A DNA stretch of 64,000 bases, from contig OZ024741.1 of the NCBI GenBank assembly GCA_964016885.1, positions 33,232,001-33,296,000 of the forward strand. Reading direction: 5' to 3'. This document shows, piece after piece, positions 3,244 through 63,245 of the stretch. The DNA is from Eledone cirrhosa (Eukaryota). Under the pieces are notes generated by a model that ran no database searches, was not told the origin of the DNA, and was given only the letters and a program-made list of their open reading frames with translations. The first letter of the stretch is position 1, and every line of letters begins with the position of its first letter. Position numbers and translations under genes: made by a program.

Positions 3244-3346
3244 TATTTATAAAACAAATCTGTATTTTATCTGATGAAAGCGCACCATAATTTGCCTTGG
3301 TTGCCCTTGAAATATGTATAATAAAATAAATATGGTTTTATAAATA
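3244..3346 (+). ncRNA. Type I hammerhead ribozyme motif
   Basis: TATTTTAT-CTGATGA-stem II-GAA-ATATGTAT-A-ATAAAATA; 8-bp stem I extended by a perfect 12-bp helix TATTTATAAAAC/GTTTTATAAATA; predicted cleavage AUA after 3320. Confidence 0.7.
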
Positions 3347-3624: not shown

Positions 3625-4805
<1,181 letters not shown>

Positions 4806-10794: not shown

Positions 10795-11130
10795 CCGAGA
10801 ATAAGTAAGAGACGTAGTCACTGCTTTAAAACTCATAGCGAATGGTCTTCTAAATGTTTTTAATTAAACATACAGTATATTGCCAAATATACTATATATA
10901 CATTCATGTATACATCGCTATTTCAGAGCACCAATCCTAATACCTAATTTTTACTGGACCGGCAACCGCTCTGTGTAATCAGCTCTGGAATTCTATAAGA
11001 ATCCAGCCTCTATGATTCTCGATGAAGGCAACTGAGTGTGTGGTCTTGATAAACGCTCACAAGCTAGAAACAGACTGTTTGTCGGCCGCTCTCTGTTGTT
11101 TTTGCCGAGAATAAGTAAGTGACATAGTCA
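10795..11130 (+). mobile_element. Retrozyme-like element, 310-nt monomer plus 26-nt terminal redundancy (copy 1)
   Basis: Direct repeat CCGAGAATAAGTAAG.GAC.TAGTCA at 10795-10820 and 11105-11130; contains an HHR; homologous to, but permuted relative to, 62936-63250. Confidence 0.75.
11015..11112 (+). ncRNA. Type I hammerhead ribozyme, U3-A8 variant (stem II partly decayed)
   Basis: GGTC-TTGATAA-ACGCTCACAAGCTA-GAA-ACAGA CTG TTTGT-C-GGCC with extended stem I; predicted cleavage GUC after 11083. Confidence 0.65.
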
Positions 11131-11270
11131 GATGATTGAACGTCTGAAAGTATATGCTTTCCTTATGCATATTAACGGCTGAGCAGCCTAATTTGCATAT
11201 CGAGTGAGTTAATCGGCCGTTAATATGCATAAGGAAAGTATATACTTTCAGACGTTGAATCATCTGGCAG
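11130..11270 (+). promoter_or_regulatory. Candidate compact snRNA/H1-type promoter (octamer + TATA-like), present as an inverted duplication
   Basis: ATTTGCAT at 11191-11198 (on the inverted arm); TATA-like AG(C/T)ATATACTTTCA, then 14 nt, then TGGCAGG; same motifs and spacing at 17343-17422. Confidence 0.4.
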
Positions 11271-11332
11271 GAAGGTATACGATGCTGACGATAGCTAATA
11301 AGCTTGAAACTAGTACATCGTTCCTTTGCCAG
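11264..11332 (+). ncRNA. Type I hammerhead ribozyme with palindromic stem III
   Basis: CTGGCA-GGAA-..-CGATG-CTGACGA-T AGCT AATA AGCT T-GAA-ACTAGT-A-CATCG-TTCC-TT-TGCCAG; predicted cleavage GUA after 11315. Confidence 0.75.
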
Positions 11333-11339
11333 TGTTAAA

Positions 11340-11552
11340 CAAAAGGGCAACGATGGTTGCTAAACACTGTACGGCTTAATTCGGGATTTTTGTTTACAAA
11401 AACACCGAGCATTATAATAAATGTTCGGTAAATCCATACGTACATATATATATGTGTGCATGTATGTATATATATATACATACTACTGTACGTCTGTATA
11501 CATATATGTATGTACGTATACATACTTATATATATGTATGTACGTATACATA

Positions 11553-11608
<56 letters not shown>

Positions 11609-11758
11609 TATGTATAAGTACATACATATATACATACATGCACACATATATTATGTACTAATGGATTTACTGAACATTTATTATAATGCTCGGTGTTTTT
11701 GTAAACAAACATCCCGAATTAAGCCGTACAGTGTTTAGCAACCATCGTTGCCCTTTTG
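11340..11758. repeat. Long inverted repeat (family X, tail-to-tail) around (TA)n
   Basis: ~105-bp arms AAAAGGGCAACGATGGTTGCTAAAC... / ...GTTTAGCAACCATCGTTGCCCTTTT. Confidence 0.85.
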
Positions 11759-11809
11759 AGTCAGGACCTCGACGGCTGAGCTCCGGCCGTTTCGACAGCT
11801 AGACCGAAC

Positions 11810-13294: not shown

Positions 13295-13437
13295 TAGTTC
13301 GGATCTAGCTGTCAAAACGGCCGGAGCTCAGCCGTCGAGGTCCTGACTCTTTTCCTATTACCCACTCTACAACCCTAAATATCGAGTACTCTGGTGTGTT
13401 ATGGTCCTCCTGGTATCTTACCACACCTTCTTTGTTA
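13295..13437 (+). mobile_element. Family H short element carrying the 3' half of a hammerhead
   Basis: TAGCTGTC-(G)AAACGGC..GAGCTC.GCCGTC-GAGGT plus ~95-bp tail; other copies at 11758, 27966, 30336, 56199, 57325 and 58178. Confidence 0.75.
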
Positions 13438-13953: not shown

Positions 13954-14092
13954 GTGAGCAGCTAAAAACAGACATCACCTAGCAACGGCTAAAGGAGGGA
14001 AGGATGGTGATAAGAGTTTGGTATGATTGGCAGAGAGAGGGGGAGAGAGGAGGGGAGAGATTGGGGGAAGTAGTTGATTCTAACATGCAATA

Positions 14093-14275
14093 ATTATTTC
14101 TACTTTTGGCACAAGGCCAGCAAATACTCAGTGCATTACTGGTACTTTATTTTATCGACCCCGTAAGGATGAAAGGCAAAGTTAACCTTGGCGGGATTTG
14201 AACTCAGAAAGGAAAGGGCAGTAATTCTATGAGTCAAAGATTGGCGTTCGACCCACTACCGATACTGCCAATCCA
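14093..14275 (-). mobile_element. Family A SINE
   Basis: Reverse complement of consensus. Confidence 0.88.
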
Positions 14276-14525
14276 CCCCCATTCAATAATGAAATCTCTC
14301 CAAAGAATTGGATCCAATGAGTTAGGGAAAGAGGACAGAACATTCAACTGAAAGAGGATAGATCATTCAACTGTTAAAATGGGACTCCTGCATAGGCTTG
14401 GCTAGCGCATAGCTAGAACAAGATATAGTACTGAAGATACGTACATGCATATGTACACGCAGGTATACATATATACGCAAGTATACATACATACAAACAA
14501 ACATGCATACATACCTGTATTCATA

Positions 14526-16927: not shown

Positions 16928-17056
16928 TATACTTATATATACACTATATATAATTATAAACAGTAAGAAAAATAGCTCAATGTAAATAGATCATATATTT
17001 TACAGATCCGGAATATAAATTACAGAATAATCAAAACTATGTTCAAAACATTTTAT

Positions 17057-17103
17057 TGCTGACAATCGTTTCTTCCAAATTTTCGTTTGAAATCATCGGA
17101 GCA
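17057..17103 (-). ncRNA. Type I hammerhead ribozyme motif (U4C)
   Basis: Minus strand TGCT-CCGATGA-TTTCAAA CGAAAA TTTGGAA-GAA-ACGATTGT-C-AGCA. Confidence 0.62.
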
Positions 17104-17428
17104 CTAGCAAAGTTTAGACTTATAATTAACCTCCTATTCTACAGAACAATCGTAAAGATACATAGATGTTATTGTTGTCATTAACAGTGTCATATTTAAA
17201 GAGTGAAGGTGATGTGGTCAGTATCAGTGGATGCGACAAAGATTATAAAAGAATAAAAGAATAATACAATAATTATAGAGGAATTAAAAAAGAAAGTTAC
17301 TCGCAAAATGAGGATATTAGCAGTACACATATGCAAGCGTACACCTGCCAAGTGTCAGAGCTAGTGAAAATATATGCTATTTTCTAAAATATACAGTGAC
17401 TGATTGGCCTGATTTGCATATTAGCAGA

Positions 17429-17501
<73 letters not shown>

Positions 17502-19399: not shown

Positions 19400-20115
19400 A
19401 ATCGTCCCTAGAGTAAGTATGCCGAGTAAGAGACCCGAGAGTATGGGACATGAGATGAGGACCGGAGATTAAGGGACCCGAATTAGAGAACCGAGAGTAA
19501 CTATGTCATGTAGGGGACCTGAGAGGAAAGGACTCGAAAGTAAGTAGCTCAAGTAAACGACCCGAAAGTAAGTATCTCAAGTAAGGGACCCGAGAGTAAG
19601 TATCCCGATAATGGACCCAAGAGTATCTCAAGTAAAGGACCCTGTAGTATGTATCTCAAGTAAGGGACCCAAGAGTAAGTATCTCAATTAAGGGACCCGA
19701 GATTATCTCAAGTAATGGACCCGAGAGTAAGTATCCCAAGTAAGGGACCAGAGAATAAGTATCTCATGTAAGGGCCCCGTGAGTAAGTATCGCAAGTAAG
19801 GGACCCGAGAGTAAGTATCTCAAGTAAGGGATCCGAGAGGAAGTATCCTGAGTAAGGGACCCGAGAGTAAGTATCTCGAGTAAGGGACCCGAGAGTAAGT
19901 AGGTCAAGTAAGGGACCCGAGTGTAACTATTAGAGTAAGGGACCCGAGAGTAAGTAGATCAAGTAAGGGACCCGAGAATAAGTTGGTCAAGTAAGGGACC
20001 CGAGAATAAGTAGGCCAAGTAAGGGACCCGAGATTAAGTATCCCAAGTAAGGGACTCGAGAGTAAGTATCCCAAGTAAGGGACCCGAGTAAGAGACCCGA
20101 AAGTAAGTATCCCAG
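19400..20115. repeat. 28-bp minisatellite
   Basis: AAGTAAGGGACCCGAGAGTAAGTATCTC, about 25 diverged copies. Confidence 0.92.
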
Positions 20116-21025: not shown

Positions 21026-22540
21026 AGAGCCAAGGTTTGTCACAGACTATGAACCACGGAAGTATAAAAACCCACGGTAGTCTCAGCAGGAATTGAACTC
21101 AGAACTAAAAGGCAGTAAGTAAATGTAGTATTGTATTTTGTCTGACAGTTTACCGATTCTATTATTGTCAGCTTTTTGTTCCTCACTGAATATTTATTTC
21201 TAGTTTGCTTTTGAAGGTTGCCTAGATTAATTATTTTGACACCAACTTACCAGTTGTTTTTCTTCTATGAATTATTTAAACTGTAATCTGTCGATCTTCA
21301 AAAGTCATCCTAAAGCAGAAACAGAAAAAAATCGCTATAGATAGAAGCAGTAAAAATGTAAACAAAATTCTGACATCTCCACCACTGATCACACACTATA
21401 AAGAAAATCATGCGACAGAGAAACTAAATATATATAGGGAGAGAAAACCATACAAAAAAATGTTTATAACCGTCATTTGAGAGGAATGGAATTTAGTGCA
21501 AATAAATACGAGCCTAGTTGCTGTTATTAGAATGCCCACAAAGAACCACTCTAAAGACCTGCCAATCTCCAAAAACCCAAATTGAGAGTACCATGAAAAA
21601 AAGTGCCCAAAACGGGAAGAAATGAGGCAAAAGGGGGATAATGAAAGCTATACCCATTTTTACGAGAGAACACATCTCTCACCCACTCAAAAGTAGGTGG
21701 GAAAATTCCCCGTCTGACTCAACCATGCTTCTAAGTGTCCAAGTTTCTCTCTGAGCTTCTGTTTATTTCGACACCAAACTCACTATAATTTGTGTTACAA
21801 AAACTCAGGGATCCTTTGTTGTTCTACAGAAAGAAAACCCACTATAACTAATAATATTTTTGTTAACCATTTAAAGATTTAGTTTAGAAATATCTATATT
21901 ACAAAAGGATAGCTAGATTTAATAACAACGACTTCAGCTAATACAAGAACGGAAGCAGCCAGAAGGAAAATGTTAATAGTTAATGAGTGTGAATAAATGT
22001 ATTTGCAAATGGAAAACGATGACATCAGCGATCACTCTGTTTCCATGTTATAACAATAATGAATCGAAATACCTTCATACTGATAAACATATATCATACA
22101 ATGATTGCTGTGAACAGCATGCTAAAGCTGCACAACATTATTGTGGACTAGCAGAAAAACCACCCTCGGGTGGTTTTCTGCTAGCATATGTAGTGTGTAT
22201 ATTGATATTATACACAAATATATATGCATGTAGATATGATACATCAAATAAAATCGTAATTGACAATATACACAGAAATTGAACGAAGTCTATGTTACAC
22301 TGTCTTATGTAATCAGTAAAGTAATCCAAAATACATTTTAAAAAAGACGATATTATATATAAACTGCATTAGGAGAAAATTAGCGACGGAAATAATATGC
22401 GATATTTTTATAAGTGTTATAATATAACGGCCGCTAACCGGAAGTGTTGACATTTGAAAATGTTAAAGAAGTGAATCTTTAAAATAAGCTATAAATTATA
22501 TTTAATCAAAAGCCACGAAATTTAGCACATAAATTATGCA

Positions 22541-22997
22541 TGGATTGGCAGTATCGGTAGAGGGTCGGAGGCTATGCTTTGCAGCATAGTTACGTCCTTT
22601 TACGGACTGAGTTCAAATCCCGCCGAGGTTAACTAACTTTGCTTTTCATCCTTACGGGGTCGATAAAATAAAGTACCAGTAATGCACTGGTGAATTGCTG
22701 GCCTTGTGCCAAAAGTAGAAACAATTATTTATTCAAAGTAATCCAACTTATTTTACAAACGGGGTAAAAAAAATATATTCTGGACGCAGTCCCGCACTCC
22801 TTTCTTTATTATAGTTAAGATTGGCAGTATCGGTAGAGGGTCGGACGCCATGCTTTATAGCAAAGAGTTAGGGCCTTTATGGTCTGAGTTCAAATCCCGC
22901 CAAGGTTAACTTTGCCTTTCATCCTGACGGGGTCGATAAAATAAAGTACCAGTAATGCACTGGGATAATTGCTGGCCTTGTCCCAAAAGTAGAAACA
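22541..22997 (+). mobile_element. Two family A SINEs (22541-22727, 22818-22997)
   Basis: Match to consensus. Confidence 0.88.
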
Positions 22998-27965: not shown

Positions 27966-27967
<2 letters not shown>

Positions 27968-28150
27968 CGAAGAAAGTGTGGTAAGGAACCAGGTGGATCA
28001 TAACGCACCAGAGTACTTGATACTTTGGGTAGTAGAGTGGGTAATAGGAAAATGTTCAGGACCCCGACGGCAGAGCTCAAGCCGTTTCGACGGCTATATC
28101 TGGACAGTCCGGCTTGAGCTCTGCCGTCGGGGTCCTGAACATTTTCCTAT
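27966..28150 (-). mobile_element. Family H element with fold-back (41-bp arms)
   Basis: Arms 28044-28084 and 28110-28150; between (TA)n tracts. Confidence 0.8.
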
Positions 28151-28536: not shown

Positions 28537-28567
<31 letters not shown>

Positions 28568-28702
28568 TATACTTATATATACACTATATATAATTATAAA
28601 CAGGAAAGGTCAGTATTTATATTTTTTACCACCTTATTACCAGTATGAAAAATAGCTCAATGTAAATACATTAGATGTCTTACAGAGCAGGAATATATTC
28701 TG

Positions 28703-30335: not shown

Positions 30336-30336
<1 letters not shown>

Positions 30337-30482
30337 CAAAGAAGGTGTGGTAAGATACCAGGTGGACCATAACGCACCAGAGTACTCGATACTTAGGGTA
30401 GTAGAGTGGGCAATAGGAAAAGAGTCAGGACCCCGTCTGCTGAGCTCCGGCGTTTCGACTGCTAGATTCGTTTCGATAGCTA
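30336..30482 (-). mobile_element. Family H element
   Basis: Reverse complement of 13295-13437. Confidence 0.78.
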
Positions 30483-34213: not shown

Positions 34214-34500
34214 CGAGGTTTACTTTGCCTTTCATCCTTACGGGGTCGATAAAATAAAGTACCAGTAATGCACTGGGTTTTTGCTGGCCTTGTGCCAAAA
34301 GTAGAAACAATTATATTATATTGTGAATTGGCAGTATCGGTAGAGGGTTGGACGCCATGCTTTCTAGCATAGTTACGTCCCTTTACCGTCTGAGTTCAAA
34401 TCCCGCCAAGGTTGCCTTTCATCCATACGGGGTCGATAAAATAAAGTACCAATAGTGTACTGGGTATTTGCTGGCCTTGTGCCTAAAGTAGAAACAATTA
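34214..34500 (+). mobile_element. Partial plus near-full family A SINEs
   Basis: Match to consensus. Confidence 0.85.
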
Positions 34501-35204
34501 TATTACCGTATGGAATCTGTGTGTATCTGTCTGTCTGTATGTCTGACTATCGATATATATTTAACGATGTACTGCTGTGTATATGACAGTTAGTGAAAGA
34601 AAAGAAAGTATATAGGTATGTGTTTTTGTAAGTGTATGTGTCTGTGTGCGTATGTTTGTGCCTATGTGTATGTATGTTTGCATGTGTGTTTGTGTGTTTA
34701 CGTGTTTGTTTGTTTATCTATGTGTCTGTTCATGTCTGTGTGTATTTGTATGTCGGTGATTGTGTATAAATATATATATATGTGTGTATGTTTGTGTGAC
34801 TGTGCATGTATGTATGTGTGTGAGTAAGTCACGGGTTTGACACACTAATGATCCATTAGGATGGCAGTCAAGTTTACTGAGTGTGAGCTTACTGTTAGTC
34901 CCTACTTGACCTCAAGTCACTTCACGTCATCTCAAAACACCTTCTTCTTTCCTGAACCACCCAAACCTTCATTCAAATACTACTTCCTCCCCTTCTTACC
35001 TACTCCCCCCCCCCCCATCTATACACTGTCCCTTCTGTCTTTTCTCCCAACCACTTCCGTTTTCGTCACCATATTTTTCTTTACTAACATCCACTTCATT
35101 TGCCGGTCGATGTCGCTATTATCACCACCGCCGCTGTCAACCACATGATGCAGCCAGCATGTTTATATGCAGGTGCTTGACCTGCTAGAAATAGCAACCG
35201 AATA

Positions 35205-35678: not shown

Positions 35679-35865
35679 GGTGGATTGGCAGTATCGGTAG
35701 AGGGTCGGACGCCATGCTTTGACGCATGAAGTTACGGTCCTTGCCATTCTGAGTTCAAATCCCGCCAAGGTTAACTTTGCCTTTTATCCTTACGGGGTCA
35801 ATAAAATAAACTACCAGTAATGTACTGGGTAATTGCTGGCCTTGTGCCAAAAGTAGAAACAATTA
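35679..35865 (+). mobile_element. Family A SINE
   Basis: Match to consensus. Confidence 0.9.
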
Positions 35866-35974
35866 TAAAGAAGAACCAAAGAAACAGGCATATCTTAACA
35901 TATCATTTAAACATGTTAAGAAAAAGTATTTATTTCGCAGGCTCAGAAATACAACACAGAACAATGACTTCTAG

Positions 35975-36170
35975 TATAGCCACAAGGCCAGTAATATGGG
36001 GGGAGAGGAAAGTCGATTAAATCGACCCCAGTACGTTACTGGTGCTTTATTTTATCGACCCTGTAAGGCTGAAAGGCAAAGTTAACCTCGGCAGAATTTG
36101 AACTCAGACCGTAAAGGCCCGTAACTCTATGCTGCAAAGCATGGTGTCCGACTCTCTATCGATACTGCCA
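35975..36170 (-). mobile_element. Family A-related SINE with alternative tail
   Basis: Reverse complement of head and body; tail differs. Confidence 0.82.
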
Positions 36171-36998: not shown

Positions 36999-38804
36999 CT
37001 ACAGGCTGAGGTAGAGAGAAGGCCCATTCACACGGGCCATTCTCGCAACTTTCACCCACCTTTCATAAAACTGGCTGGAGTGGAGCACCTCTCTCTCCAT
37101 CCTGATCCTTCTTCCGAAATGGTATCGGAAGAAAAGGACCAGTTGTTGGCCGGAGAGAAAGGTGTCCGACCTCAGCCCTTTCAGACGCCTCCGCCATATA
37201 GCCTCTTTTACCATGGCTATTACACAGAGGAAGACCGCCTCTCCTTCATTTTTGAAGGGGGGAGGCGGCTTGACCGTTACAATGGACTCGGTGGTCAACC
37301 TAATTGGTCCCACCCGTGACAGCAGTTGTTCGACATAGCCCCACAGATCGGCAACGCCCGGGCAGTGCACCAATGCGTGCGCGACGGATTCCTCGTCGCG
37401 CACGCATCTGGGACAGATCTTTTTCGAGGGGTCCCTACCCGGGCGCCCGTGTCTGTAGAGATTATCCCGAACGGGCAGAGGCCCTCGGTAGCACTGCCAG
37501 GCCAAGGACTTCTGGAAGTTGTCCATAGGTCCCGGGCCGAAAGTCCTACCGAATAGACTGGCCAGTTCGTCCTCCTCCATGCCTAGGTTTTCTCCGAGGG
37601 CGTCGTCGCACCCGCTAACCACCAGCCCTCTATAGAATGACGAGGTGGATTCTCCACTGACAGTCGGGTCCGCCTGCCAGAGAGCCGTGAGCGCCAGGGC
37701 ACACTCGGTGTGCCAGTCGCCCAGTTTTCTCGGTCTTTGCTTCACCCAGGACTGCAGCTCGGTGAGCGAGACGAGCCTCGGGAAGGTTCGCCTCACAAAC
37801 GGGGCCCACACCGGTTGACCGGTGAGGAATACCTGGAGGTGCCTTAGCCTCAATGCGTGTTTACGCATTTTTAGCCACGGCATCCCCAGCCCTCCTTTCA
37901 AAGGGTGTTGACAGCAGATGGATCTCCTCACCAGAGGAGACCTCTTTTTCCAAAGGAAATAAAAGAGGGCGCGCTCCATTTTGGCAAGGATCTCACCCGG
38001 GCAAGGTCCGACAGTCAAGCGGTAATAGATGACGGACGCTATGTAAGCGTTCGCCACCTCCGCCCGACCTTTCAGGGATAGTTTGCACTCGGCCCACTTC
38101 TGGGTCAGTGCAAATACCCTATTCGTCACCTCACCCCAGTTTTTCTCCACCTGGAGGTCCGGTCCGAACCAGACCCCAAGCAACTTCACCGGGCCCTCCG
38201 TCCACCGTCCGACGATACCGTCGCACGACATCGCTTTGCCCCTCCACTCGCCGAGTTGCAAAGCGACTGACTTGTCCCGGTTCAGCTTAGCCCCTGTCAA
38301 CCTTTCGTACTCCTCCAGTAAGGTGCCGATTGCCTCGATTTCCGAGGTGGTCGACACCATTACTGTTACGTCATCGGCATAGGCCGACACCACTTTGCGC
38401 AATCCCGGTTCCAAAGGGATGCCCTGCAACAACTCCAACTTCCGCAGTAGTGGCTCGAGAGCCAATACATACAGAAGGGAGGAGAGAGGGCATCCCTGTC
38501 GGATGGAGCGGGTGATTTCGAATGGCTCCGAAAGGTAGCCGTTCACCTTGACTCTAGAGCAGATGCGGCTGCTGTGCATGGCAGTGATCCAGCCCCTGAA
38601 AACGGGTCCGAACCCAGCCGCCGCTAGCACCGCATCCAGGTAACCATGGTCCACCCTATCGAACGCTTTAGGCTGATCTAAATTTATCAGGGCCCCACCA
38701 AATCCGGGTTCGTTCCCAACCCTCTCTATGATGTATCGCATGAGGTGGAGGTTGTCGTGGATGGACCTGGACGGGATAGCGCATGTCTGCGCATCTCCCA
38801 CCAT
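36999..38804 (-). pseudogene. Tx1 ORF2 segment 3: reverse transcriptase core + zinc knuckle
   Basis: LDQPKAFDRVDH, RQGCPLS, AYADDV, LGVWF, GGLG, CPRCVRDEESVAHALVHC. Confidence 0.92.
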
Positions 38805-39298
38805 GACCCCACGACAAGCGCCAACCTCTTCGCTAACACCTTGGCCAAAATCTTTAACTCTGCATTTAGCAGATTTATGGGCCTAAAATTACTAATGTCA
38901 TCCCCCTTGTTCTCGTCCTTTCTCACTAGCGAGACTACGCCCTTGGTCACAGAACAGGGAATTCTCCCGTTCTGTTGCCAGTTGCAGTAGACCGCCTCGA
39001 GGAGATCGGGGAACAAGTCCGGCATATTAATATATAGTTCGTAGGGCAGACCATCGAGCCCTGGAGATTTGCGTTTGCCGCATAGGCTCAGCATGTCCCC
39101 TATTTCAGCAGCTGAGATCGGCCCGTCGCAGGACCTCGCCTCCCTGTCCGAAAGACGCGGCAGGCCGTCGAGGTATGGACCGAAATCCACATTCCCAACA
39201 GGCCCCCCACCCCTCCCGAACAATTGATCAAAGTACCTTTGAAAGGCCTCGCACATTTGCTTAGGTTCAAGGATCAACCGTCCATCCTGGTCTCGCAA
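38726..39298 (-). pseudogene. Tx1 ORF2 segment 2: RT N-terminal region
   Basis: KSPGLDGLPYELY, NFRPINLLNAELKILAKVLAKRL. Confidence 0.9.
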
Positions 39299-39331
39299 AG
39301 ACCGGATAGTGGATTTAATCCCACTTTTCGC

Positions 39332-40404
39332 TTATGTCACGCGGGCCCAGCTAACAGCTTTGGTCCCCTCGTTTCCCAGAGCACGTATTTTGCTTCGGAC
39401 AACGCAGCTTTCGTGGTTCAAGGCCGTTCTCGACGCTTGCACTCTGGCCACGTTGCCGCTTCTCATTGCCTCTTCAACATTAACTACCAACTCCCTTTCC
39501 TTCCTATTTCTATCTGAGGCTAACTCCTTACTAACTCCTATTGAAACTACTCTAATCTCTCTTTTTAGAGAGCCCCACCACCTGCTGTTGACGATGGCGC
39601 CCGTCAACCGCTCCTTAACTAAGGTTCTAATCCGGTCCCTGTAAGCTCTACTTGCCGGTAAGGACAAGTTGAGCTTCCAGTAACCGGGTCCCTGCCTATG
39701 CGTTCTATCAAGGTGGACTACGCAGGTCACTAACTTGTGGTCTGAATAGCCCACCATGAGCATTTTTGGACAACTTAAAAAGTCCCTATCCTTAATTCTA
39801 ACTAAGAACCTATCTAGGTACGATCTAGATTGACCACTGTTATTTGACCAAGTCCAGGTTGGCACAGTCGGAAAATCTAGTCGGTATCTATCGGCCAGGT
39901 CAAATCGGCCGATTAACCCCTTGAGGCTGTTACACCCTCCTCTATCGGGACATGCCCCTACATAGTCCCAACGTGCATCTAGGATACCATTCCAGTCCCC
40001 CACTAAAACCAAGGAGAGGGACGTCCCTAGAAAAGACTCCACACGATGGAAGAAGTCCGACCGCATTGCCCCAAAGGGGGCGTATACGGCGACAAGCCTA
40101 AAAGCTGCGCCTTCACCACTGCCAAGGTCCAGAACCACGAGTTGACCCTCCGGGTCCAAGTGTACCGTCTGTGTTGCGAGACCCAGATGTTTTTGCAGCA
40201 GAACGACAACCCCACTCCCACCTCCGGGCTGACAGAGAGATGTGTGCATCTCAAATTCATCAAAGGTCGGGGCTAGCTGTCGCACGCTGCTGATCCGGGC
40301 CTCGCAAATAACCATCACATTTATATATTGTGACCTGAGGTCATTTAGAAGTTTAGCTTGCTTCCAAGGTGAGCCCAGGCCACGCGCATTTAGACAACCT
40401 ACTC
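39332..40404 (-). pseudogene. Tx1 ORF2 segment 1: apurinic-like endonuclease
   Basis: CLNARGL, ICE, VYAP, GDWN, YLDRFLV, SDHK, GPGYWKLN. Confidence 0.9.
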
Positions 40405-40646
40405 TTTCGTGGCTATTATGCAAAAACATTACATCATAGAGATGCAGTATTTTTGTCAGGTTTGCCGACTTATCAAGAGGATACCGCATTAAGAGTTTCA
40501 AAACACGTCCGTAGGACGCGAGATAGAATCCCGAAAGGCGGAGCGGGAACTTATCACGTGATACAGCGTCAAGAAACAGAGCTAAGCTTCTTACAACCAA
40601 GAGAAAAAATACTGCATCTGTATGTTTTTGCATAATAGCCACGAAA
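40405..40646. repeat. Inverted-repeat element abutting the Tx1 5' end
   Basis: TTTCGTGGCTATTATGCAAAAACAT..AGATGCAGTATTTTT and its reverse complement at 40605-40646. Confidence 0.75.
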
Positions 40647-40787
40647 CTACGTAGTCGAGGATAATGAAGGAATGTAGGCATATTATATCTTTTTATTTAT
40701 ATCTAATGTTTCTTCTTTCTTTATAATGTATTATATAGCTCTGATATTGAATCAATTTAATCCATTCAGATTATTTTCTCCCTATTA

Positions 40788-42675: not shown

Positions 42676-45600
42676 CAGGCAGGCTGACATGAAGGTAACC
42701 AGGTAGACAGTCTGACATGCAGGCAGGCTGACATGAAGGTAACCAGACAGACAGGCTGACATGCAGGCAGGCTGACATGAAGGTAACCAGGTAGGCAGGC
42801 TGACATGCAGGCAGGCTGACATGAAGGTAACCAGGTAGGCAGGCTGACATGCAGGCAGGCTGACATGAAGGTAACCAGGTAGACAGTCTGACATGCAGGC
42901 AGACTGACATGAAGGTAACCAGGTAGACAGTCTGACATGCAGGCAGACTGACATGAAGGTAACCAGGTAGACAGTCTGACATGCAGGCAGGCTGACATGA
43001 AGGTAACCAGGTAGGCAGGCTGACATGCAGGCAGACTGACATGAAGGTAACCAGGTAGACAGTCTGACATGCAGGCAGGCTGACATGAAGGTAACCAGGT
43101 AGACAGTCTGACATGCAGGCAGGCTGACATGAAGGTAACCAGGTAGACAGTCTGACATGCAGGCAGGCTGACATGAAGGTAACCAGGTAGGCAGTCTGAC
43201 ATGCAGGCAGACTGACATGAAGGTAACCAGGTAGACAGTCTGACATGCAGGCAGGCTGACATGAAGGTAACCAGGTAGGCAGGCTGACATGCAGGCAGGC
43301 TGACATGAAGGTAACCAGGTAGGCAGGCTGACATGCAGGCAGGCTGACATGAAGGTAACCAGGTAGACAGTCTGACATGCAGGCAGGCTGACATGAAGGT
43401 AACCAGGTAGGCAGGCTGACATGAAGGCAGGCTGACATGAAGGTAACCAGGTAGACAGTCTGACATGCAGGCAGGCTGACATGAAGGTAACCAGACAGAC
43501 AGTCTGACATGCAGGCAGGCTGACATGAAGGTAACCAGGTAGACAGTCTGACATGCAGGCAGGCTGACATGAAGGTAACCAGGTAGGCAGGCTGACATGC
43601 AGGCAGGCTGACATGAAGGTAACCAGGTAGACAGTCTGACATGCAGGCAGGCTGACATGAAGGTAACCAGACAGACAGTCTGACATGCAGGCAGGCTGAC
43701 ATGAAGGTAACCAGGTAGACAGTCTGACATGCAGGCAGACTGACATGAAGGTAACCAGGTAGACAGTCTGACATGCAGGCAGACTGACATGAAGGTAACC
43801 AGGTAGGCAGTCTGACATGCAGGCAGACTGACATGAAGGTAACCAGGTAGACAGTCTGACATGCAGGCAGGCTGACATGAAGGTAACCAGGTAGACAGTC
43901 TGACATGCAGGCAGGCTGACATGAAGGTAACCAGGTAGGCAGGCTGACATGCAGGCAGGCTGACATGAAGGTAACCAGGTAGACAGTCTGACATGCAGGC
44001 AGGCTGACATGAAGGTAACCAGGTAGACAGTCTGACATGCAGGCAGACTGACATGAAGGTAACCAGGTAGACAGTCTGACATGCAGGCAGACTGACATGA
44101 AGGTAACCAGGTAGGCAGGCTGACATGCAGGCAGGCTGACATGAAGGTAACCAGGTAGGCAGGCTGACATGCAGGCAGACTGACATGAAGGTAACCAGGT
44201 AGACAGTCTGACATGCAGGCAGGCTGACATGAAGGTAACCAGGTAGGCAGGCTGACATGCAGGCAGGCTGACATGAAGGTAACCAGGTAGGCAGGCTGAC
44301 ATGCAGGCAGGCTGACATGAAGGTAACCAGGTAGACAGTCTGACATGCAGGCAGGCTGACATGAAGGTAACCAGGTAGGCAGGCTGACATGAAGGCAGGC
44401 TGACATGAAGGTAACCAGGTAGACAGTCTGACATGCAGGCAGGCTGACATGAAGGTAACCAGACAGACAGTCTGACATGCAGGCAGACTGACATGAAGGT
44501 AACCAGGTAGGCAGTCTGACATGCAGGCAGGCTGACATGAAGGTAACCAGGTAGGCAGGCTGACATGCAGGCAGGCTGACATGAAGGTAACCAGGTAGGC
44601 AGGCTGACATGCAGGCAGGCTGACATGAAGGTAACCAGGTAGGCAGTCTGACATGCAGGCAGACTGACATGAAGGTAACCAGGTAGACAGTCTGACATGC
44701 AGGCAGGCTGACATGAAGGTAACCAGGTAGGCAGGCTGACATGCAGGCAGGCTGACATGAAGGTAACCAGGTAGACAGTCTGACATGCAGGCAGGCTGAC
44801 ATGAAGGTAACCAGGTAGGCAGGCTGACATGCAGGCAGGCTGACATGAAGGTAACCAGGTAGACAGTCTGACATGCAGGCAGGCTGACATGAAGGTAACC
44901 AGGTAGGCAGTCTGACATGCAGGCAGACTGACATGAAGGTAACCAGGTAGACAGTCTGACATGCAGGCAGACTGACATGAAGGTAACCAGGTAGACAGTC
45001 TGACATGCAGGCAGGCTGACATGAAGGTAACCAGGTAGACAGTCTGACATGCAGGCAGGCTGACATGAAGGTAACCAGGTAGGCAGGCTGACATGCAGGC
45101 AGGCTGACATGAAGGTAACCAGGTAGACAGTCTGACATGCAGGCAGGCTGACATGAAGGTAACCAGGTAGGCAGGCTGACATGCAGGCAGGCTGACATGA
45201 AGGTAACCAGGTAGACAGTCTGACATGCAGGCAGGCTGACATGAAGGTAACCAGGTAGACAGTCTGACATGCAGGCAGGCTGACATGAAGGTAACCAGGT
45301 AGGCAGGCTGACATGCAGGCAGGCTGACATGAAGGTAACCAGGTAGACAGTCTGACATGCAGGCAGGCTGACATGAAGGTAACCAGGTAGGCAGTCTGAC
45401 ATGCAGGCAGACTGACATGAAGGTAACCAGGTAGACAGTCTGACATGCAGGCAGACTGACATGAAGGTAACCAGGTAGACAGTCTGACATGCAGGCAGGC
45501 TGACATGAAGGTAACCAGGTAGACAGTCTGACATGCAGGCAGGCTGACATGAAGGTAACCAGGTAGGCAGGCTGACATGCAGGCAGGCTGACATGAAGGT

Positions 45601-48600
45601 AACCAGGTAGACAGTCTGACATGCAGGCAGGCTGACATGAAGGTAACCAGGTAGGCAGGCTGACATGCAGGCAGGCTGACATGAAGGTAACCAGGTAGAC
45701 AGTCTGACATGCAGGCAGGCTGACATGAAGGTAACCAGGTAGGCAGGCTGACATGCAGGCAGGCTGACATGAAGGTAACCAGGTAGGCAGGCTGACATGC
45801 AGGCAGGCTGACATGAAGGTAACCAGGTAGACAGTCTGACATGCAGGCAGGCTGACATGAAGGTAACCAGGTAGGCAGGCTGACATGCAGGCAGGCTGAC
45901 ATGAAGGTAACCAGGTAGGCAGTCTGACATGCAGGCAGACTGACATGAAGGTAACCAGGTAGACAGTCTGACATGCAGGCAGGCTGACATGAAGGTAACC
46001 AGGTAGGCAGGCTGACATGCAGGCAGGCTGACATGAAGGTAACCAGGTAGACAGTCTGACATGCAGGCAGGCTGACATGAAGGTAACCAGGTAGGCAGGC
46101 TGACATGCAGGCAGGCTGACATGAAGGTAACCAGGTAGACAGTCTGACATGCAGGCAGGCTGACATGAAGGTAACCAGGTAGGCAGGCTGACATGCAGGC
46201 AGGCTGACATGAAGGTAACCAGGTAGACAGTCTGACATGCAGGCAGGCTGACATGAAGGTAACCAGGTAGGCAGGCTGACATGCAGGCAGGCTGACATGA
46301 AGGTAACCAGGTAGACAGTCTGACATGCAGGCAGGCTGACATGAAGGTAACCAGGTAGGCAGGCTGACATGCAGGCAGGCTGACATGAAGGTAACCAGGT
46401 AGACAGTCTGACATGCAGGCAGGCTGACATGAAGGTAACCAGGTAGACAGTCTGACATGCAGGCAGGCTGACATGAAGGTAACCAGGTAGACAGTCTGAC
46501 ATGCAGGCAGGCTGACATGAAGGTAACCAGGTAGACAGGCTGACATGCAGGCAGGCTGACATGAAGGTAACCAGGTAGGCAGGCTGACATGCAGGCAGGC
46601 TGACATGAAGGTAACCAGATAGGCAGGCTGACATGCAGGCAGGCTGACATGAAGGTAACCAGGTAGACAGTCTGACATGCAGGCAGGCTGACATGAAGGT
46701 AACCAGGTAGGCAGGCTGACATGCAGGCAGGCTGACATGAAGGTAACCAGGTAGACAGTCTGACATGCAGGCAGGCTGACATGAAGGTAACCAGGTAGGC
46801 AGGCTGACATGCAGGCAGGCTGACATGAAGGTAACCAGGTAGACAGTCTGACATGCAGGCAGGCTGACATGAAGGTAACCAGGTAGACAGTCTGACATGC
46901 AGGCAGACTGACATGAAGGTAACCAGGTAGGCAGGCTGACATGCAGGCAGGCTGACATGAAGGTAACCAGGTAGACAGTCTGACATGCAGGCAGGCTGAC
47001 ATGAAGGTAACCAGGTAGACAGTCTGACATGCAGGCAGGCTGACATGAAGGTAACCAGGTAGGCAGGCTGACATGCAGGCAGGCTGACATGAAGGTAACC
47101 AGGTAGGCAGGCTGACATGCAGGCAGGCTGACATGAAGGTAACCAGGTAGACAGTCTGACATGCAGGCAGGCTGACATGAAGGTAACCAGGTAGACAGTC
47201 TGACATGCAGGCAGGCTGACATGAAGGTAACCAGGTAGACAGTCTGACATGCAGGCAGGCTGACATGAAGGTAACCAGGTAGACAGTCTGACATGCAGGC
47301 AGGCTGACATGAAGGTAACCAGGTAAGCAGTCTGACATGCAGGCAGGCTGACATGAAGGTAACCAGGTAGACAGTCTGACATGCAGGCAGGCTGACATGA
47401 AGGTAACCAGGTAGACAGTCTGACATGCAGGCAGGCTGACATGAAGGTAACCAGGTAGACAGTCTGACATGCAGGCAGGCTGACATGAAGGTAACCAGGT
47501 AGACAGTCTGACATGCAGGCAGGCTGACATGAAGGTAACCAGGTAGACAGTCTGACATGCAGGCAGGCTGACATGAAGGTAACCAGGTAGGCAGGCTGAC
47601 ATGCAGGCAGACTGACATGAAGGTAACCAGGTAGGCAGTCTGACATGCAGGCAGGCTGACATGAAGGTAACCAGGTAAGCAGTCTGACATGCAGGCAGAC
47701 TGACATGAAGGTAACCAGGTAGGCAGGCTGACATGCAGGCAGGCTGACATGAAGGTAACCAGGTAGACAGTCTGACATGCAGGCAGGCTGACATGAAGGT
47801 AACCAGGTAGACAGTCTGACATGCAGGCAGGCTGACATGAAGGTAACCAGGTAGACAGTCTGACATGCAGGCAGGCTGACATGAAGGTAACCAGGTAAGC
47901 AGTCTGACATGCAGGCAGGCTGACATGAAGGTAACCAGGTAGGCAGGCTGACATGCAGGCAGGCTGACATGAAGGTAACCAGGTAGACAGTCTGACATGC
48001 AGGCAGACTGACATGAAGGTAACCAGGTAGACAGTCTGACATGCAGGCAGGCTGACATGAAGGTAACCAGGTAGGCAGGCTGACATGCAGGCAGGCTGAC
48101 ATGAAGGTAACCAGGTAGGCAGGCTGACATGCAGGCAGGCTGACATGAAGGTAACCAGGTAAGCAGTCTGACATGCAGGCAGGCTGACATGAAGGTAACC
48201 AGGTAGGCAGTCTGACATGCAGGCAGGCTGACATGAAGGTAACCAGGTAGACAGTCTGACATGCAGGCAGGCTGACATGAAGGTAACCAGGTAGGCAGGC
48301 TGACATGCAGGCAGGCTGACATGAAGGTAACCAGGTAGGCAGGCTGACATGCAGGCAGGCTGACATGAAGGTAACCAGGTAGACAGTCTGACATGCAGGC
48401 AGGCTGACATGAAGGTAACCAGGTAGACAGTCTGACATGCAGGCAGGCTGACATGAAGGTAACCAGGTAGACAGTCTGACATGCAGGCAGGCTGACATGA
48501 AGGTAACCAGGTAGGCAGTCTGACATGCAGGCAGGCTGACATGAAGGTAACCAGGTAGACAGTCTGACATGCAGGCAGGCTGACATGAAGGTAACCAGGT

Positions 48601-51600
48601 AGGCAGGCTGACATGCAGGCAGGCTGACATGAAGGTAACCAGGTAGACAGTCTGACATGCAGGCAGGCTGACATGAAGGTAACCAGGTAGACAGTCTGAC
48701 ATGCAGGCAGGCTGACATGAAGGTAACCAGGTAGGCAGGCTGACATGCAGGCAGGCTGACATGAAGGTAACCAGGTAGGCAGGCTGACATGAAGGCAGGC
48801 TGACATGAAGGTAACCAGGTAGGCAGGCTGACATGCAGGCAGGCTGACATGAAGGTAACCAGGTAGGCAGTCTGACATGCAGGCAGGCTGACATGAAGGT
48901 AACCAGGTAGACAGTCTGACATGCAGGCAGGCTGACATGAAGGTAACCAGGTAGGCAGGCTGACATGCAGGCAGGCTGACATGAAGGTAACCAGGTAGGC
49001 AGGCTGACATGAAGGCAGGCTGACATGAAGGTAACCAGGTAGGCAGGCTGACATGCAGGCAGGCTGACATGAAGGTAACCAGGTAGGCAGGCTGACATGC
49101 AGGCAGGCTGACATGAAGGTAACCAGGTAGGCAGGCTGACATGAAGGCAGGCTGACATGAAGGTAACCAGGTAGACAGTCTGACATGCAGGCAGGCTGAC
49201 ATGAAGGTAACCAGGTAGACAGTCTGACATGCAGGCAGGCTGACATGAAGGTAACCAGGTAGGCAGGCTGACATGCAGGCAGGCTGACATGAAGGTAACC
49301 AGGTAGACAGTCTGACATGCAGGCAGGCTGACATGAAGGTAACCAGGTAGGCAGGCTGACATGCAGGCAGGCTGACATGAAGGTAACCAGGTAGGCAGGC
49401 TGACATGAAGGCAGGCTGACATGAAGGTAACCAGGTAGGCAGGCTGACATGCAGGCAGGCTGACATGAAGGTAACCAGGTAGGCAGGCTGACATGCAGGC
49501 AGGCTGACATGAAGGTAACCAGGTAGGCAGGCTGACATGAAGGCAGGCTGACATGAAGGTAACCAGGTAGACAGTCTGACATGCAGGCAGGCTGACATGA
49601 AGGTAACCAGGTAGGCAGTCTGACATGCAGGCAGGCTGACATGAAGGTAACCAGGTAGACAGTCTGACATGCAGGCAGTCTGACATGAAGGTAACCAGGT
49701 AGACAGTCTGACATGCAGGCAGGCTGACATGAAGGTAACCAGGTAGACAGTCTGACATGCAGGCAGGCTGACATGAAGGTAACCAGGTAGGCAGGCTGAC
49801 ATGCAGGCAGGCTGACATGAAGGTAACCAGGTAGGCAGGCTGACATGAAGGCAGGCTGACATGAAGGTAACCAGGTAGGCAGGCTGACATGCAGGCAGGC
49901 TGACATGAAGGTAACCAGGTAGGCAGGCTGACATGCAGGCAGGCTGACATGAAGGTAACCAGGTAGGCAGGCTGACATGAAGGCAGGCTGACATGAAGGT
50001 AACCAGGTAGACAGTCTGACATGCAGGCAGGCTGACATGAAGGTAACCAGGTAGACAGTCTGACATGCAGGCAGGCTGACATGAAGGTAACCAGGTAGGC
50101 AGGCTGACATGCAGGCAGGCTGACATGAAGGTAACCAGGTAGACAGTCTGACATGCAGGCAGACTGACATGAAGGTAACCAGGTAGACAGTCTGACATGC
50201 AGGCAGGCTGACATGAAGGTAACCAGGTAGGCAGGCTGACATGCAGGCAGGCTGACATGAAGGTAACCAGGTAGACAGTCTGACATGCAGGCAGGCTGAC
50301 ATGAAGGTAACCAGGTAGGCAGGCTGACATGCAGGCAGGCTGACATGAAGGTAACCAGGTAGGCAGGCTGACATGAAGGCAGGCTGACATGAAGGTAACC
50401 AGGTAGGCAGGCTGACATGCAGGCAGGCTGACATGAAGGTAACCAGGTAGGCAGGCTGACATGCAGGCAGGCTGACATGAAGGTAACCAGGTAGGCAGGC
50501 TGACATGCAGGCAGACTGACATGAAGGTAACCAGGTAGGCAGGCTGACATGCAGGCAGGCTGACATGAAGGTAACCAGGTAGGCAGGCTGACATGAAGGC
50601 AGGCTGACATGAAGGTAACCAGGTAGACAGTCTGACATGCAGGCAGGCTGACATGAAGGTAACCAGGTAGGCAGTCTGACATGCAGGCAGGCTGACATGA
50701 AGGTAACCAGGTAGACAGTCTGACATGCAGGCAGGCTGACATGAAGGTAACCAGGTAGGCAGGCTGACATGCAGGCAGGCTGACATGAAGGTAACCAGGT
50801 AGACAGTCTGACATGCAGGCAGGCTGACATGAAGGTAACCAGGTAGGCAGGCTGACATGCAGGCAGGCTGACATGAAGGTAACCAGGTAGGCAGGCTGAC
50901 ATGCAGGCAGGCTGACATGAAGGTAACCAGGTAGGCAGGCTGACATGCAGGCAGGCTGACATGAAGGTAACCAGGTAGACAGTCTGACATGCAGGCAGGC
51001 TGACATGAAGGTAACCAGGTAGGCAGTCTGACATGCAGGCAGGCTGACATGAAGGTAACCAGGTAGACAGTCTGACATGCAGGCAGGCTGACATGAAGGT
51101 AACCAGGTAGGCAGGCTGACATGCAGGCAGGCTGACATGAAGGTAACCAGGTAGACAGTCTGACATGCAGGCAGGCTGACATGAAGGTAACCAGGTAGGC
51201 AGGCTGACATGCAGGCAGGCTGACATGAAGGTAACCAGGTAGACAGTCTGACATGCAGGCAGGCTGACATGAAGGTAACCAGGTAGGCAGGCTGACATGC
51301 AGGCAGGCTGACATGAAGGTAACCAGGTAGGCAGGCTGACATGCAGGCAGGCTGACATGAAGGTAACCAGGTAGGCAGGCTGACATGCAGGCAGGCTGAC
51401 ATGAAGGTAACCAGGTAGGCAGGCTGACATGAAGGCAGGCTGACATGAAGGTAACCAGGTAGACAGTCTGACATGCAGGCAGGCTGACATGAAGGTAACC
51501 AGGTAGACAGTCTGACATGCAGGCAGGCTGACATGAAGGTAACCAGGTAGGCAGGCTGACATGCAGGCAGGCTGACATGAAGGTAACCAGGTAGGCAGGC

Positions 51601-51656
51601 TGACATGCAGGCAGGCTGACATGCAGGCAGGCTGACATGAAGGTAACCAGGTAGGC
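42676..51656. repeat. 44-bp satellite/minisatellite, about 204 copies (~9 kb)
   Basis: AGGCTGACATGAAGGTAACCAGGTAG(A/G)CAG(T/G)CTGACATGCAGGC. Confidence 0.98.
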
Positions 51657-54039: not shown

Positions 54040-54358
54040 TTCAAATCCCGCCGAGGTTAACTTTGCCTTTCATCCTTACGGGGTCGATAAAATAAAGTAC
54101 CAGTAATGTACTGAGATAATTGCTGGTCTTGTGCCAAAAGTAGAAACAATTATTATCTTTTAACTTAGGCGGAGGATTGGCAGTATCGGTAGAAGGTTGG
54201 ACGCCATGCTTTGCAGCATAGAGTTACGCCCCTTTACAGACTGAGTTCAAATCCCGCCGAGGTTAACTTTGCCTTTCATCCTTACGGGGTCGATAAAATA
54301 AAGTACCAGTAATGTACTGAGATAATTGCTGGCCTTGTGCCAAAAGTAGAAACAATTA
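54040..54358 (+). mobile_element. Partial + full family A SINE in tandem with a triplicated flank
   Basis: ATTA(T/C)ATCTTTTAA at ~54024, ~54149 and ~54356. Confidence 0.87.
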
Positions 54359-54388
54359 TCATCTTTTAACTTATTTTAATCATTTCAG

Positions 54389-56198: not shown

Positions 56199-56403
56199 AT
56201 AGGAAAAAGTAGGACCCCGACGGCAGACCTCAAGCTGTTTCGACGGCTATTTCTGGAGTGGAGTCCAGAAATAGCCGTGTCGAAACGGCTTGAGCTCTGC
56301 CGTCGGGGTCATACTTTTTCCTATTTCCCACTCTACTACCCTAAGTATTGAGTACTCTGGTGCGTTATGGTCCATCTGGTTCCTTACCACAATTCCTTTG
56401 TTA
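56199..56403 (+). mobile_element. Family H element with fold-back (~60-bp arms)
   Basis: Arms 56199-56257 and 56264-56324. Confidence 0.8.
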
Positions 56404-58177: not shown

Positions 58178-58179
<2 letters not shown>

Positions 58180-58367
58180 CGAACGAAATGTGGTAAGGAA
58201 CCGGATGGACCATAACGCACCAAAGTACTCAATACTTAGGGTAGTAGCGTGGGTAATAGGAACAAGTATGACCCCGACGGCAGAGCTCAAGCCGTTTCGA
58301 CGGCTAATTCTGAACTGAATTAGCCGTCGAAACGGCTTGAGCTCTGCCGTCGGGGTCATACTTGTTC

Positions 58368-58371
<4 letters not shown>
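58178..58371 (-). mobile_element. Family H element with perfect 55-bp fold-back
   Basis: Arms 58256-58310 and 58317-58371, loop TGAACT. Confidence 0.85.
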
Positions 58372-62380: not shown

Positions 62381-62534
62381 AAGGAAATATATATAAGCTA
62401 ACCACTGTTTACACTTGATTTTTTTATCCTGTGTTCATCGCACGTAAAAATATATACTACAGAGCAACATATTCCATCAGCTATATTTCAAATACACAAT
62501 ATATATATATTGTATTTTGTATTTATATATACAT

Positions 62535-62769
62535 ATACATGAGTATGTACACGCACATACATATATGTATACAGACGTACAGTAGTATGTATATATATAT
62601 ATATACACATACATGCACACATATATATATATATGTACGTATGGATTCACCGAACATTTATTATAATGCTCGGTGTGTTTGTAAACAAACATCCCGTATT
62701 ACGGCTTAATACGGGATGTTTGTTTACAAACACACCGAGCATTATAATAAATGTTCGGTGAATCCATAC

Positions 62770-62809
<40 letters not shown>

Positions 62810-62876
62810 ATGTATGTATATATATATACATACTACTGTACGTCTGTATACATATATGTATGTGCGTGTACATACT

Positions 62877-62880
<4 letters not shown>
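62535..62880. repeat. Long palindrome (family X, head-to-head)
   Basis: Centre CCCGTATTA-CGGCT-TAATACGGG; ~165-bp arms homologous to 11370-11530. Confidence 0.85.
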
Positions 62881-62935
<55 letters not shown>

Positions 62936-62937
<2 letters not shown>

Positions 62938-63245
62938 TAGAATTGGAGCTCTGAAATAGCAATATATATATATGGATGTATATATAATGTATTTTGCAAT
63001 ACACTTTATGCTTAATTAAAAGCATTTTGAAGACCGTATGCTATTGTTTTAGAGTAGTGACAAATTCACTTACTTTAATCTCAGCAAACAGGGGAGATAA
63101 GCCGACAAGGTCTTGTTTCGCTTTTGTTGAAGCTTATCAAGGCTAACTACCCCTCCTGTCTACTGAGATTACTGATGTTATATTCTTATAGAATACTAGT
63201 AAATAATCAGGAGCTGATTATACAGAACGATTGCTGGTCAGGCAG

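Follow-up and report, generated by a model that had tools for sequence, protein, structure and literature searches.

A compact cassette, consisting of an octamer-containing block, a TATA-like block and the heptamer TGGCAGG, is shared by two sites (at 11.1–11.3 kb and at 17.4 kb) in the 64,000-nt stretch of the Eledone cirrhosa genome that was analysed here (hereafter the window). We tentatively explain it as a Pol II promoter, octamer plus TATA-like box, that is carried by a mobile element and recopied by tandem read-through, an explanation to which we give slightly less than an even chance. According to this model both sites would be 5′-truncated 3′ ends (pseudo-LTR-like) of Penelope-like elements (PLEs) or of non-autonomous retrozyme derivatives. 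The cassette would act as a compact promoter in which a POU octamer lies near -70 and a weak TATA-like box precedes the CA of the conserved heptamer by about 30 nt, one lineage having a CCAAT box as well, and transcription would start at the base of ribozyme stem I. Such a promoter lies upstream of its own start site and can therefore be renewed only if the template is tandem or circular, as in pseudo-LTRs and newt satellite 2; it would be copied with the unit ahead of it, forming the 3′ part of that unit, and the long read-through RNA would be cut by a dimeric ribozyme. The head-to-head inversion at 11129-11266 may be a by-product of insertion.

The earlier note on this DNA had placed one copy of the cassette at 11130-11332. 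The motif strings and spacings that it quoted were all located (11200-11129 on the minus strand, 11237-11271 on the plus strand and 17421-17344 on the minus strand), but at the first site they are not contiguous on one strand and represent a reconstruction from the two arms of an inverted duplication, which was confirmed, the arms being identical at 49 of 51 common positions (Table 1). The short arm, read on the minus strand, terminates at T|G, the G being the first one of the heptamer, and thus before the ribozyme. The long arm, read on the plus strand, presents block 2 (11237-11250), the conserved heptamer (11265-11271) and then the ribozyme, this last part forming an extension of about 70 nt that is missing from the short arm. 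With +1 set at the first G of the GG in the heptamer, the octamer of the 11.3-kb locus as it stands is found in reverse orientation at -75 to -68. In the 17.4-kb copy the octamer block (17407-17421), a CCAAT (17403-17407), the TATA-like block (17365-17378) and the heptamer (17344-17350) follow one another, which puts the octamer at -70 to -63, CCAAT at -58 to -54 and the TATA-like hexamer at -27 to -22. This hexamer reads CATATA in both octamer-bearing copies (two of the three copies) and TATATA in the long arm only, and CCAAT is present in one of the two copies, the 17.4-kb one.

Table 1. Features at and around the two cassette sites (positions within the window).
Feature	Positions	Strand	Remarks
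Family X, 310-bp hammerhead repeat	10795-11130	+	one monomer + 26 nt; U3-A8 core variant at 11046
Short arm of head-to-head inversion	11129-11200	-	carries blocks 1 and 2; stops at base of ribozyme stem I
Block 2, TATA-like, short arm	11145-11158	-	CATATA; 13/14 identical to 17.4-kb copy
Block 1 with octamer (11191-11198)	11186-11200	-	14/15 identical to 17.4-kb copy
Junction filler between arms	11201-11215		apparently scrambled adjacent arm sequence (by eye)
Long arm	11216-11339	+	5′-truncated, without octamer; start about 11216, 3′ boundary approximate
Type-I hammerhead	11265-11331	+	core 11285-11291, GAAA 11306-11309, predicted cleavage after 11315
Non-repetitive stretch, flanked by two (TA)n runs	16953-17431	-	about 480 nt; 3′ end recurs at about 28560-28700
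Hammerhead-like motif (17099)	17057-17103	-	U4C in core, long stem II, +251 from 17.4-kb cassette
Hairpin (17317-17351), then T4 (17305-17308) and T6 (17286-17291)	17286-17351	-	no catalytic core
Sole contiguous cassette	17344-17421	-	octamer block, CCAAT, TATA-like block, heptamer

Within the window the best match of the actual short arm is the 17.4-kb site, with a local score of 59 that was reached by none of 40 dinucleotide-shuffled queries (maximum 55). In a tiled alignment of the window the same site stands out at z 5.1 among 6322 tiles, the next best being at z 2.5. As the short arm alone picks the 17.4-kb site as its top match, the similarity of the cassettes is independent of the reconstruction. 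The proposal that motifs and spacing are kept and spacers diverged was borne out in part: the blocks agree at 14 of 15 and 13 of 14 positions, the single mismatch in block 1 sitting immediately outside the octamer, against 12 of 28 and 5 of 14 positions in the spacers (combined 17/42, a residual similarity at binomial p 0.03), but the clustering of matches is marginal (p 0.006 for 78 columns, rising to p 0.055 when the edges are trimmed to leave 68 interior columns) for a pair of sites that had been picked for its blocks and that provides two independent copies. The octamer alone is not enriched (two in the window versus 4.8 expected), and the TATA-gap-hexamer pattern occurs five times versus 4.1 expected. 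No third copy of the cassette was detected in the window by motif searches or tiled alignment, nor with an nhmmer profile built from the three known segments, whose best further match had an E of 1.4. A scan of GTDB for host contamination returned four matches, all bacterial and none with a hammerhead core or (TA)n, which were treated as chance, and a sigma-70 scan was empty.

The hammerhead repeat that abuts the short arm (family X in Table 1; second copy at 62936-63245 on the minus strand) was considered as a third carrier of the cassette and was left as suggestive only: unanchored, its upstream region ranks eighth against the cassette (z 2.7). In anchored alignments to the 17.4-kb cassette p values of 0.003 (63-kb copy) and 0.03 (11-kb copy) were obtained, to be set beside 0.14–0.58 for both copies against the 11.1-kb arms, and family X has no octamer at the position corresponding to that of the cassette. 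A TATA-like 13-mer is conserved in this family about 50 nt upstream of the core, its resemblance to the cassette being weak and non-significant. Both copies contain the U3-A8 core variant, which has been described in PMC4209133.

The statement that the heptamer opens stem I of an intact hammerhead was confirmed at the 11.3-kb site. The ribozyme is of type I, its core is intact, and it has three stems: stem I is open and bulged, stem II has a U·U at its base, and stem III is a 6-nt palindrome around a loop of 2 nt. Its fold is better than that of 197 of 200 shuffles. Because stem III closes a loop of 2 nt, this ribozyme is predicted to cut only as a dimer. For the other element, the hammerhead announced about 240 nt downstream is indeed represented by a motif at +251, but its core is altered (Table 1) and it folds no better than shuffles (z 0.48). 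That this motif and the 17.4-kb cassette belong to one element we infer from their common stretch of about 480 nt between (TA)n runs, their sole tie, a second copy spanning both being absent. Hammerheads were called with a purpose-built descriptor, which reported seven type-I-like motifs in the window, and none scoring at least 10 was obtained in six block-shuffled windows. Neither site was assigned by Rfam (gathering and E-value modes) to a hammerhead, snRNA or tRNA family, the matches being microsatellite or hairpin artefacts, and none of the ribozymes of the window is named by it. Further hammerhead-like motifs without an upstream cassette are located at 3271 (plus), 6877 (minus) and 12828 (minus), of which the AT-rich one at 3271 may be due to chance.

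Behind the 17.4-kb heptamer the sequence forms a weak hairpin (p 0.058), and a 7-mer occupies exactly the position that it has in stem-loop II of the 11.3-kb ribozyme, a coincidence seen in 174 of 64114 tiles (0.27%). When aligned to this ribozyme, the 17.4-kb region is identical at 24 of 63 positions and its core is lost; over the whole region the downstream similarity gives p 0.09. These alignments suggest that the two sites may have a common ancestry beyond the cassette, the 17.4-kb copy having lost its proximal ribozyme and kept the blocks. Since the blocks are conserved at about 93% while the ribozyme-matching region has decayed, the cassette appears to have been kept independently of the ribozyme.

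With respect to the type of promoter, the earlier note had proposed a type-3 Pol III promoter of the compact H1 kind, and this form found no support. In the accessible text of PMC9652321, snRNA-type promoters are described with a PSE about 40–70 bp upstream and an octamer at -250 to -170, and the compact H1 promoter is reported to retain Staf and PSE between octamer and TATA (PMC11340601, accessible part). The cassette resembles H1 in that an octamer and a TATA-like box lie upstream of a G start within 100 bp; it differs in that the octamer itself fills -70 to -62, in the slot of the PSE, and that neither PSE nor Staf is found between octamer and TATA, the remaining, least conserved part of the zone being the spacer with 12 of 28 identities. 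Both octamers of the window are proximal, and none is distal or Staf-associated upstream of a PSE. A TATA would be expected at about 25–35 bp upstream, where a TATA-like box does lie, yet it reads CATATA in most copies. The 17.4-kb copy has a T4 at +42 and a T6 at +59, ahead of the +251 ribozyme, and two T4 runs on the transcribed strand of the cassette itself, so that Pol III could neither reach this ribozyme nor recopy the promoter, and is a poor fit for read-through. The 11.3-kb arms are without T4 before +122, where the first T5 occurs. Rfam yielded no snRNA or other gene above threshold anywhere in the window, and we found no description of a mollusc PSE in the literature that was searched. 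The more general part of the proposal, that the element has its own promoter and keeps it through a circular or tandem template, is plausible and has a precedent.

A compact Pol II promoter is favoured by the conservation of the blocks relative to the spacers, by the fixed geometry and by T-runs that are contrary to Pol III. With the heptamer's A as start site, the TATA-like box would be at -30, the usual distance for Pol II. Histone H2B and immunoglobulin promoters have octamer/TATA spacings comparable to this compact Pol II octamer-TATA type. The minimal promoter of mouse Nos2 likewise has octamer and TATA within about 60–70 bp of the start, and in the accessible text its pNOS-62 version, which has both motifs within 62 bp, functions as a Pol II core (PMC3891534). 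Nos2 and H2B are, however, vertebrate host genes, whereas the putative promoter described here belongs to a mollusc mobile element. The Pol II reading is weakened by the number of copies (two), by the trimmed clustering value of 0.055, by CATATA in two of three copies and by CCAAT in one of two. It is further weakened by the absence of an adjacent PLE ORF, by the absence of the cassette from the published Naiad, Chlamys and Hydra consensuses as searched, and by the promoter of D. virilis Penelope, the sole mapped PLE promoter, which according to the accessible part of PMC2377424 is TATA-less with Inr and DPE.

The blocks could also have no promoter function, the two sites being remote homologues within a single repeat lineage in which uneven decay, ascertainment or a constraint from RT, endonuclease or RNA folding left two stretches better conserved than the rest. 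The trace of homology retained in the spacers, the in-register 7-mer downstream, the borderline interior clustering, the approximately five octamers expected by chance and the sample of two all agree with this explanation, which we nevertheless consider rather unlikely: it is the octamer and the TATA-like box, at promoter-like spacing, that are best kept while the ribozyme core of the 17.4-kb copy is lost, and the overall downstream similarity is not significant. A different origin of the conserved 3′ part would be the end of a 5′-UTR intron, with either the heptamer or block 2 (at its T-rich end) as splice acceptor. The intron of D. virilis Penelope terminates at the 5′ end of ribozyme helix I (PMC4209133 and PMC2377424, accessible text), the heptamer has CAG/G at the base of stem I, and an AG follows block 2 in both copies. 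The absence of a pyrimidine tract before the heptamer, the position of the best branch-like pentamer of the 17.4-kb copy only about 10 nt from the AG, and block 1, which an intron leaves unexplained, make this very improbable.

A SNAPc-dependent snRNA-type promoter, in which block 1 would be a cephalopod PSE and block 2 the TATA, would produce short Pol III transcripts from the first G, of about 45–60 nt in the 17.4-kb copy or extending across the ribozyme in the 11.3-kb copy. Block 1, with its 15 nt, exceeds the octamer and lies in the PSE zone, a pyrimidine-G is present at the putative start, the hairpin followed by T4 and T6 resembles a small Pol III unit, and the 11.3-kb arms would allow transcription up to +122. 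The U6 gene of Schistosoma japonicum has a putative PSE at -71 to -51, and comparison by eye shows 8 identities between its first 11 nt and block 1; in the accessible text this PSE is predicted by alignment only (PMC5460494), the distance from block 1 to TATA is 42–43 nt here versus 35 in that gene, and schistosome snRNA promoters have been called highly derived (PMC2770079, accessible part). With T-runs inside the cassette blocking the read-through required for recopying, and a hairpin that is not significant and has no Rfam small RNA match, we consider this reading distinctly unlikely. A bolder version is that cephalopod hammerhead retroelements carry a portable snRNA promoter of the host type, with block 1 as PSE, that is better conserved than the ribozyme and swapped between families, one lineage driving a core-less hairpin RNA of about 60 nt with a T6 terminator. 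This is a long shot; if true, the portable promoter would be an external promoter surviving retrotransposition via tandem or circular templates, independently of newts.

For the element-borne Pol II promoter, a PLE-type origin is suggested by the combined anatomy of inversion, tail and (TA)n, by the palindromes of the window, by the Hydra-clade form of the ribozyme and by a GIY-YIG remnant. An adjacent inverted 5′-truncated copy, a one-sided tail and a preference for (TA)n are given as hallmarks of PLEs in the accessible text of PMC8557442. The 11.1-kb and 17.4-kb sites together present an inverted 5′-truncated copy, a one-sided tail, a hammerhead near the 3′ end and (TA)n targets, the 11.1-kb inversion being nested in other repeats and not directly in (TA)n, and 8 of the 12 self-palindromes of the window lie beside (TA)n. 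Likewise, the Hydra clade and other endonuclease-bearing PLEs share with these sites the inverted truncated copy, the one-sided tail and the (TA)n context. Hydra-clade ribozymes lie near the 3′ end and resemble the one at 11265-11331 in that stem II starts with an unpaired T·T and stem III is palindromic (PMC8557442 supplement, as far as accessible). In contrast to endonuclease-bearing PLEs, the sites described here have no attached RT-GIY-YIG ORF, and the tail is about 70 nt rather than 30–40. No PLE ORF was found next to either site, and no PLE domain (E 0.01) in the longest 150 of the 158 unmasked ORFs. As an RT-GIY-YIG ORF is not adjacent, the class assignment is limited to a PLE-like end, with neither site tied to a named autonomous family. 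The GIY-YIG endonuclease remnant, unlinked to the sites (3931-4131, plus strand; Pfam E 0.0095, below cut-off), probably derives from a Penelope-like element; in a protein search with it, none of 28 candidates was significant.

Octopus Hydra and Naiad families exist, and Penelope-like families of Octopus vulgaris have been reported as recently active (PMC13282606, accessible part). In the published file of Naiad, Chlamys and Hydra consensuses, none of six octamer matches is followed by the cassette, with the caveat that a match interrupted by a line break of the file could have been missed. One Naiad 3′ end resembles the heptamer region by eye, without flanking similarity. Non-LTR retrozymes are recognised by tandem monomers of 150–400 nt, each with a type-I hammerhead, and no tandem arrangement of the cassette elements was found in the window; animal retrozymes have been argued to descend from PLE pseudo-LTRs in the accessible text of bioRxiv 10.64898/2026.07.22.740005.

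Other repeats surround these sites. The repeat at 11340-11758 and 62500-62935 adjoins family X at both loci; its 11.5-kb locus consists of tail-to-tail arms (96%) with the same start and a (TA)n core, and the one at 62.7 kb is head-to-head. An apparent hammerhead 3′-half repeat family was observed at 11758-11809, 13297-13435, 27967-28147, 30336-30470, 56202-56403 and 58179-58368, forming head-to-head inversions at three loci, with a tail of about 80 nt separating long and short arms and with ends in (TA)n. A 28-bp minisatellite (19429-20088) has a short stretch in common with the monomer junction of family X. The window as a whole is rich in microsatellites, about 39% of it being masked as tandem repeat, and includes a 44-bp satellite (42676-51627; about 203 copies, 96% matches) that is open in three minus-strand frames. 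A SINE-like family of about 190 bp, presumably a common octopus SINE, is abundant and several times tandem (342-725, 850-1270, 2050-2240, 14085-14276, 22540-22997, 34214-34511, 35680-36170 and 54040-54373). A LINE on the minus strand (36999-40696), presumably of the Tx1 type, has its endonuclease, RT and zf-RVT domains spread over three reading frames, and its RT has its nearest named relatives in Argonauta hians (62%) and Acanthosepion pharaonis.

Among known systems, newt satellite 2, an amphibian non-LTR retrozyme, is the precedent on which the earlier note relied. Coats, Zhang and Epstein reportedly found in 1994 that its promoter uses an octamer together with a PSE. The snRNA type of this promoter stood up, but in the accessible text it is cited as transcribed by Pol II (PMC2220036). 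Like the 11.3-kb locus, satellite 2 is a short repeat with a type-I hammerhead and a weak palindromic stem III (PMC7229834), and it has its own promoter elements and needs tandem read-through (PMC2220036, PMC7229834; accessible parts), as is proposed here. It differs from the Eledone sites in its Pol II snRNA promoter; the cassette has a TATA-like box and no conserved PSE, and it does not form a tandem array in the window. Schistosoma Sm-alpha, also a lophotrochozoan hammerhead repeat, has its own promoter as well, putative in our case; as described in the accessible sources it is SINE-like and tRNA-derived with a Pol III promoter, whereas no tRNA family was matched here (Rfam).

Only T7 promoters are mentioned in the accessible text of the 2020 retrozyme paper (PMC7229834), and the word “promoter” is absent from that of bioRxiv 10.64898/2026.07.22.740005. 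We found no description of an octamer-TATA cassette in cephalopod hammerhead repeats in the literature that was searched, most subscription papers lying outside it. That a ribozyme repeat can have a promoter of its own is already known from newts and schistosomes, and the cassette is at most a variation on this concept. Its importance is limited, since it is represented by two decayed repeat fragments, one of which is split across an inversion. Nevertheless, the transcription of animal retrozymes and PLE ends is largely unmapped: the only promoters that we found in the accessible literature are those of newt satellite 2, schistosome Sm-alpha and D. virilis Penelope. In this respect, a short cassette of octamer and TATA-like box whose distance from ribozyme stem I is fixed offers a concrete and cheap test and, if active, could be used as a minimal promoter to express transgenes or guide RNAs in cephalopods.
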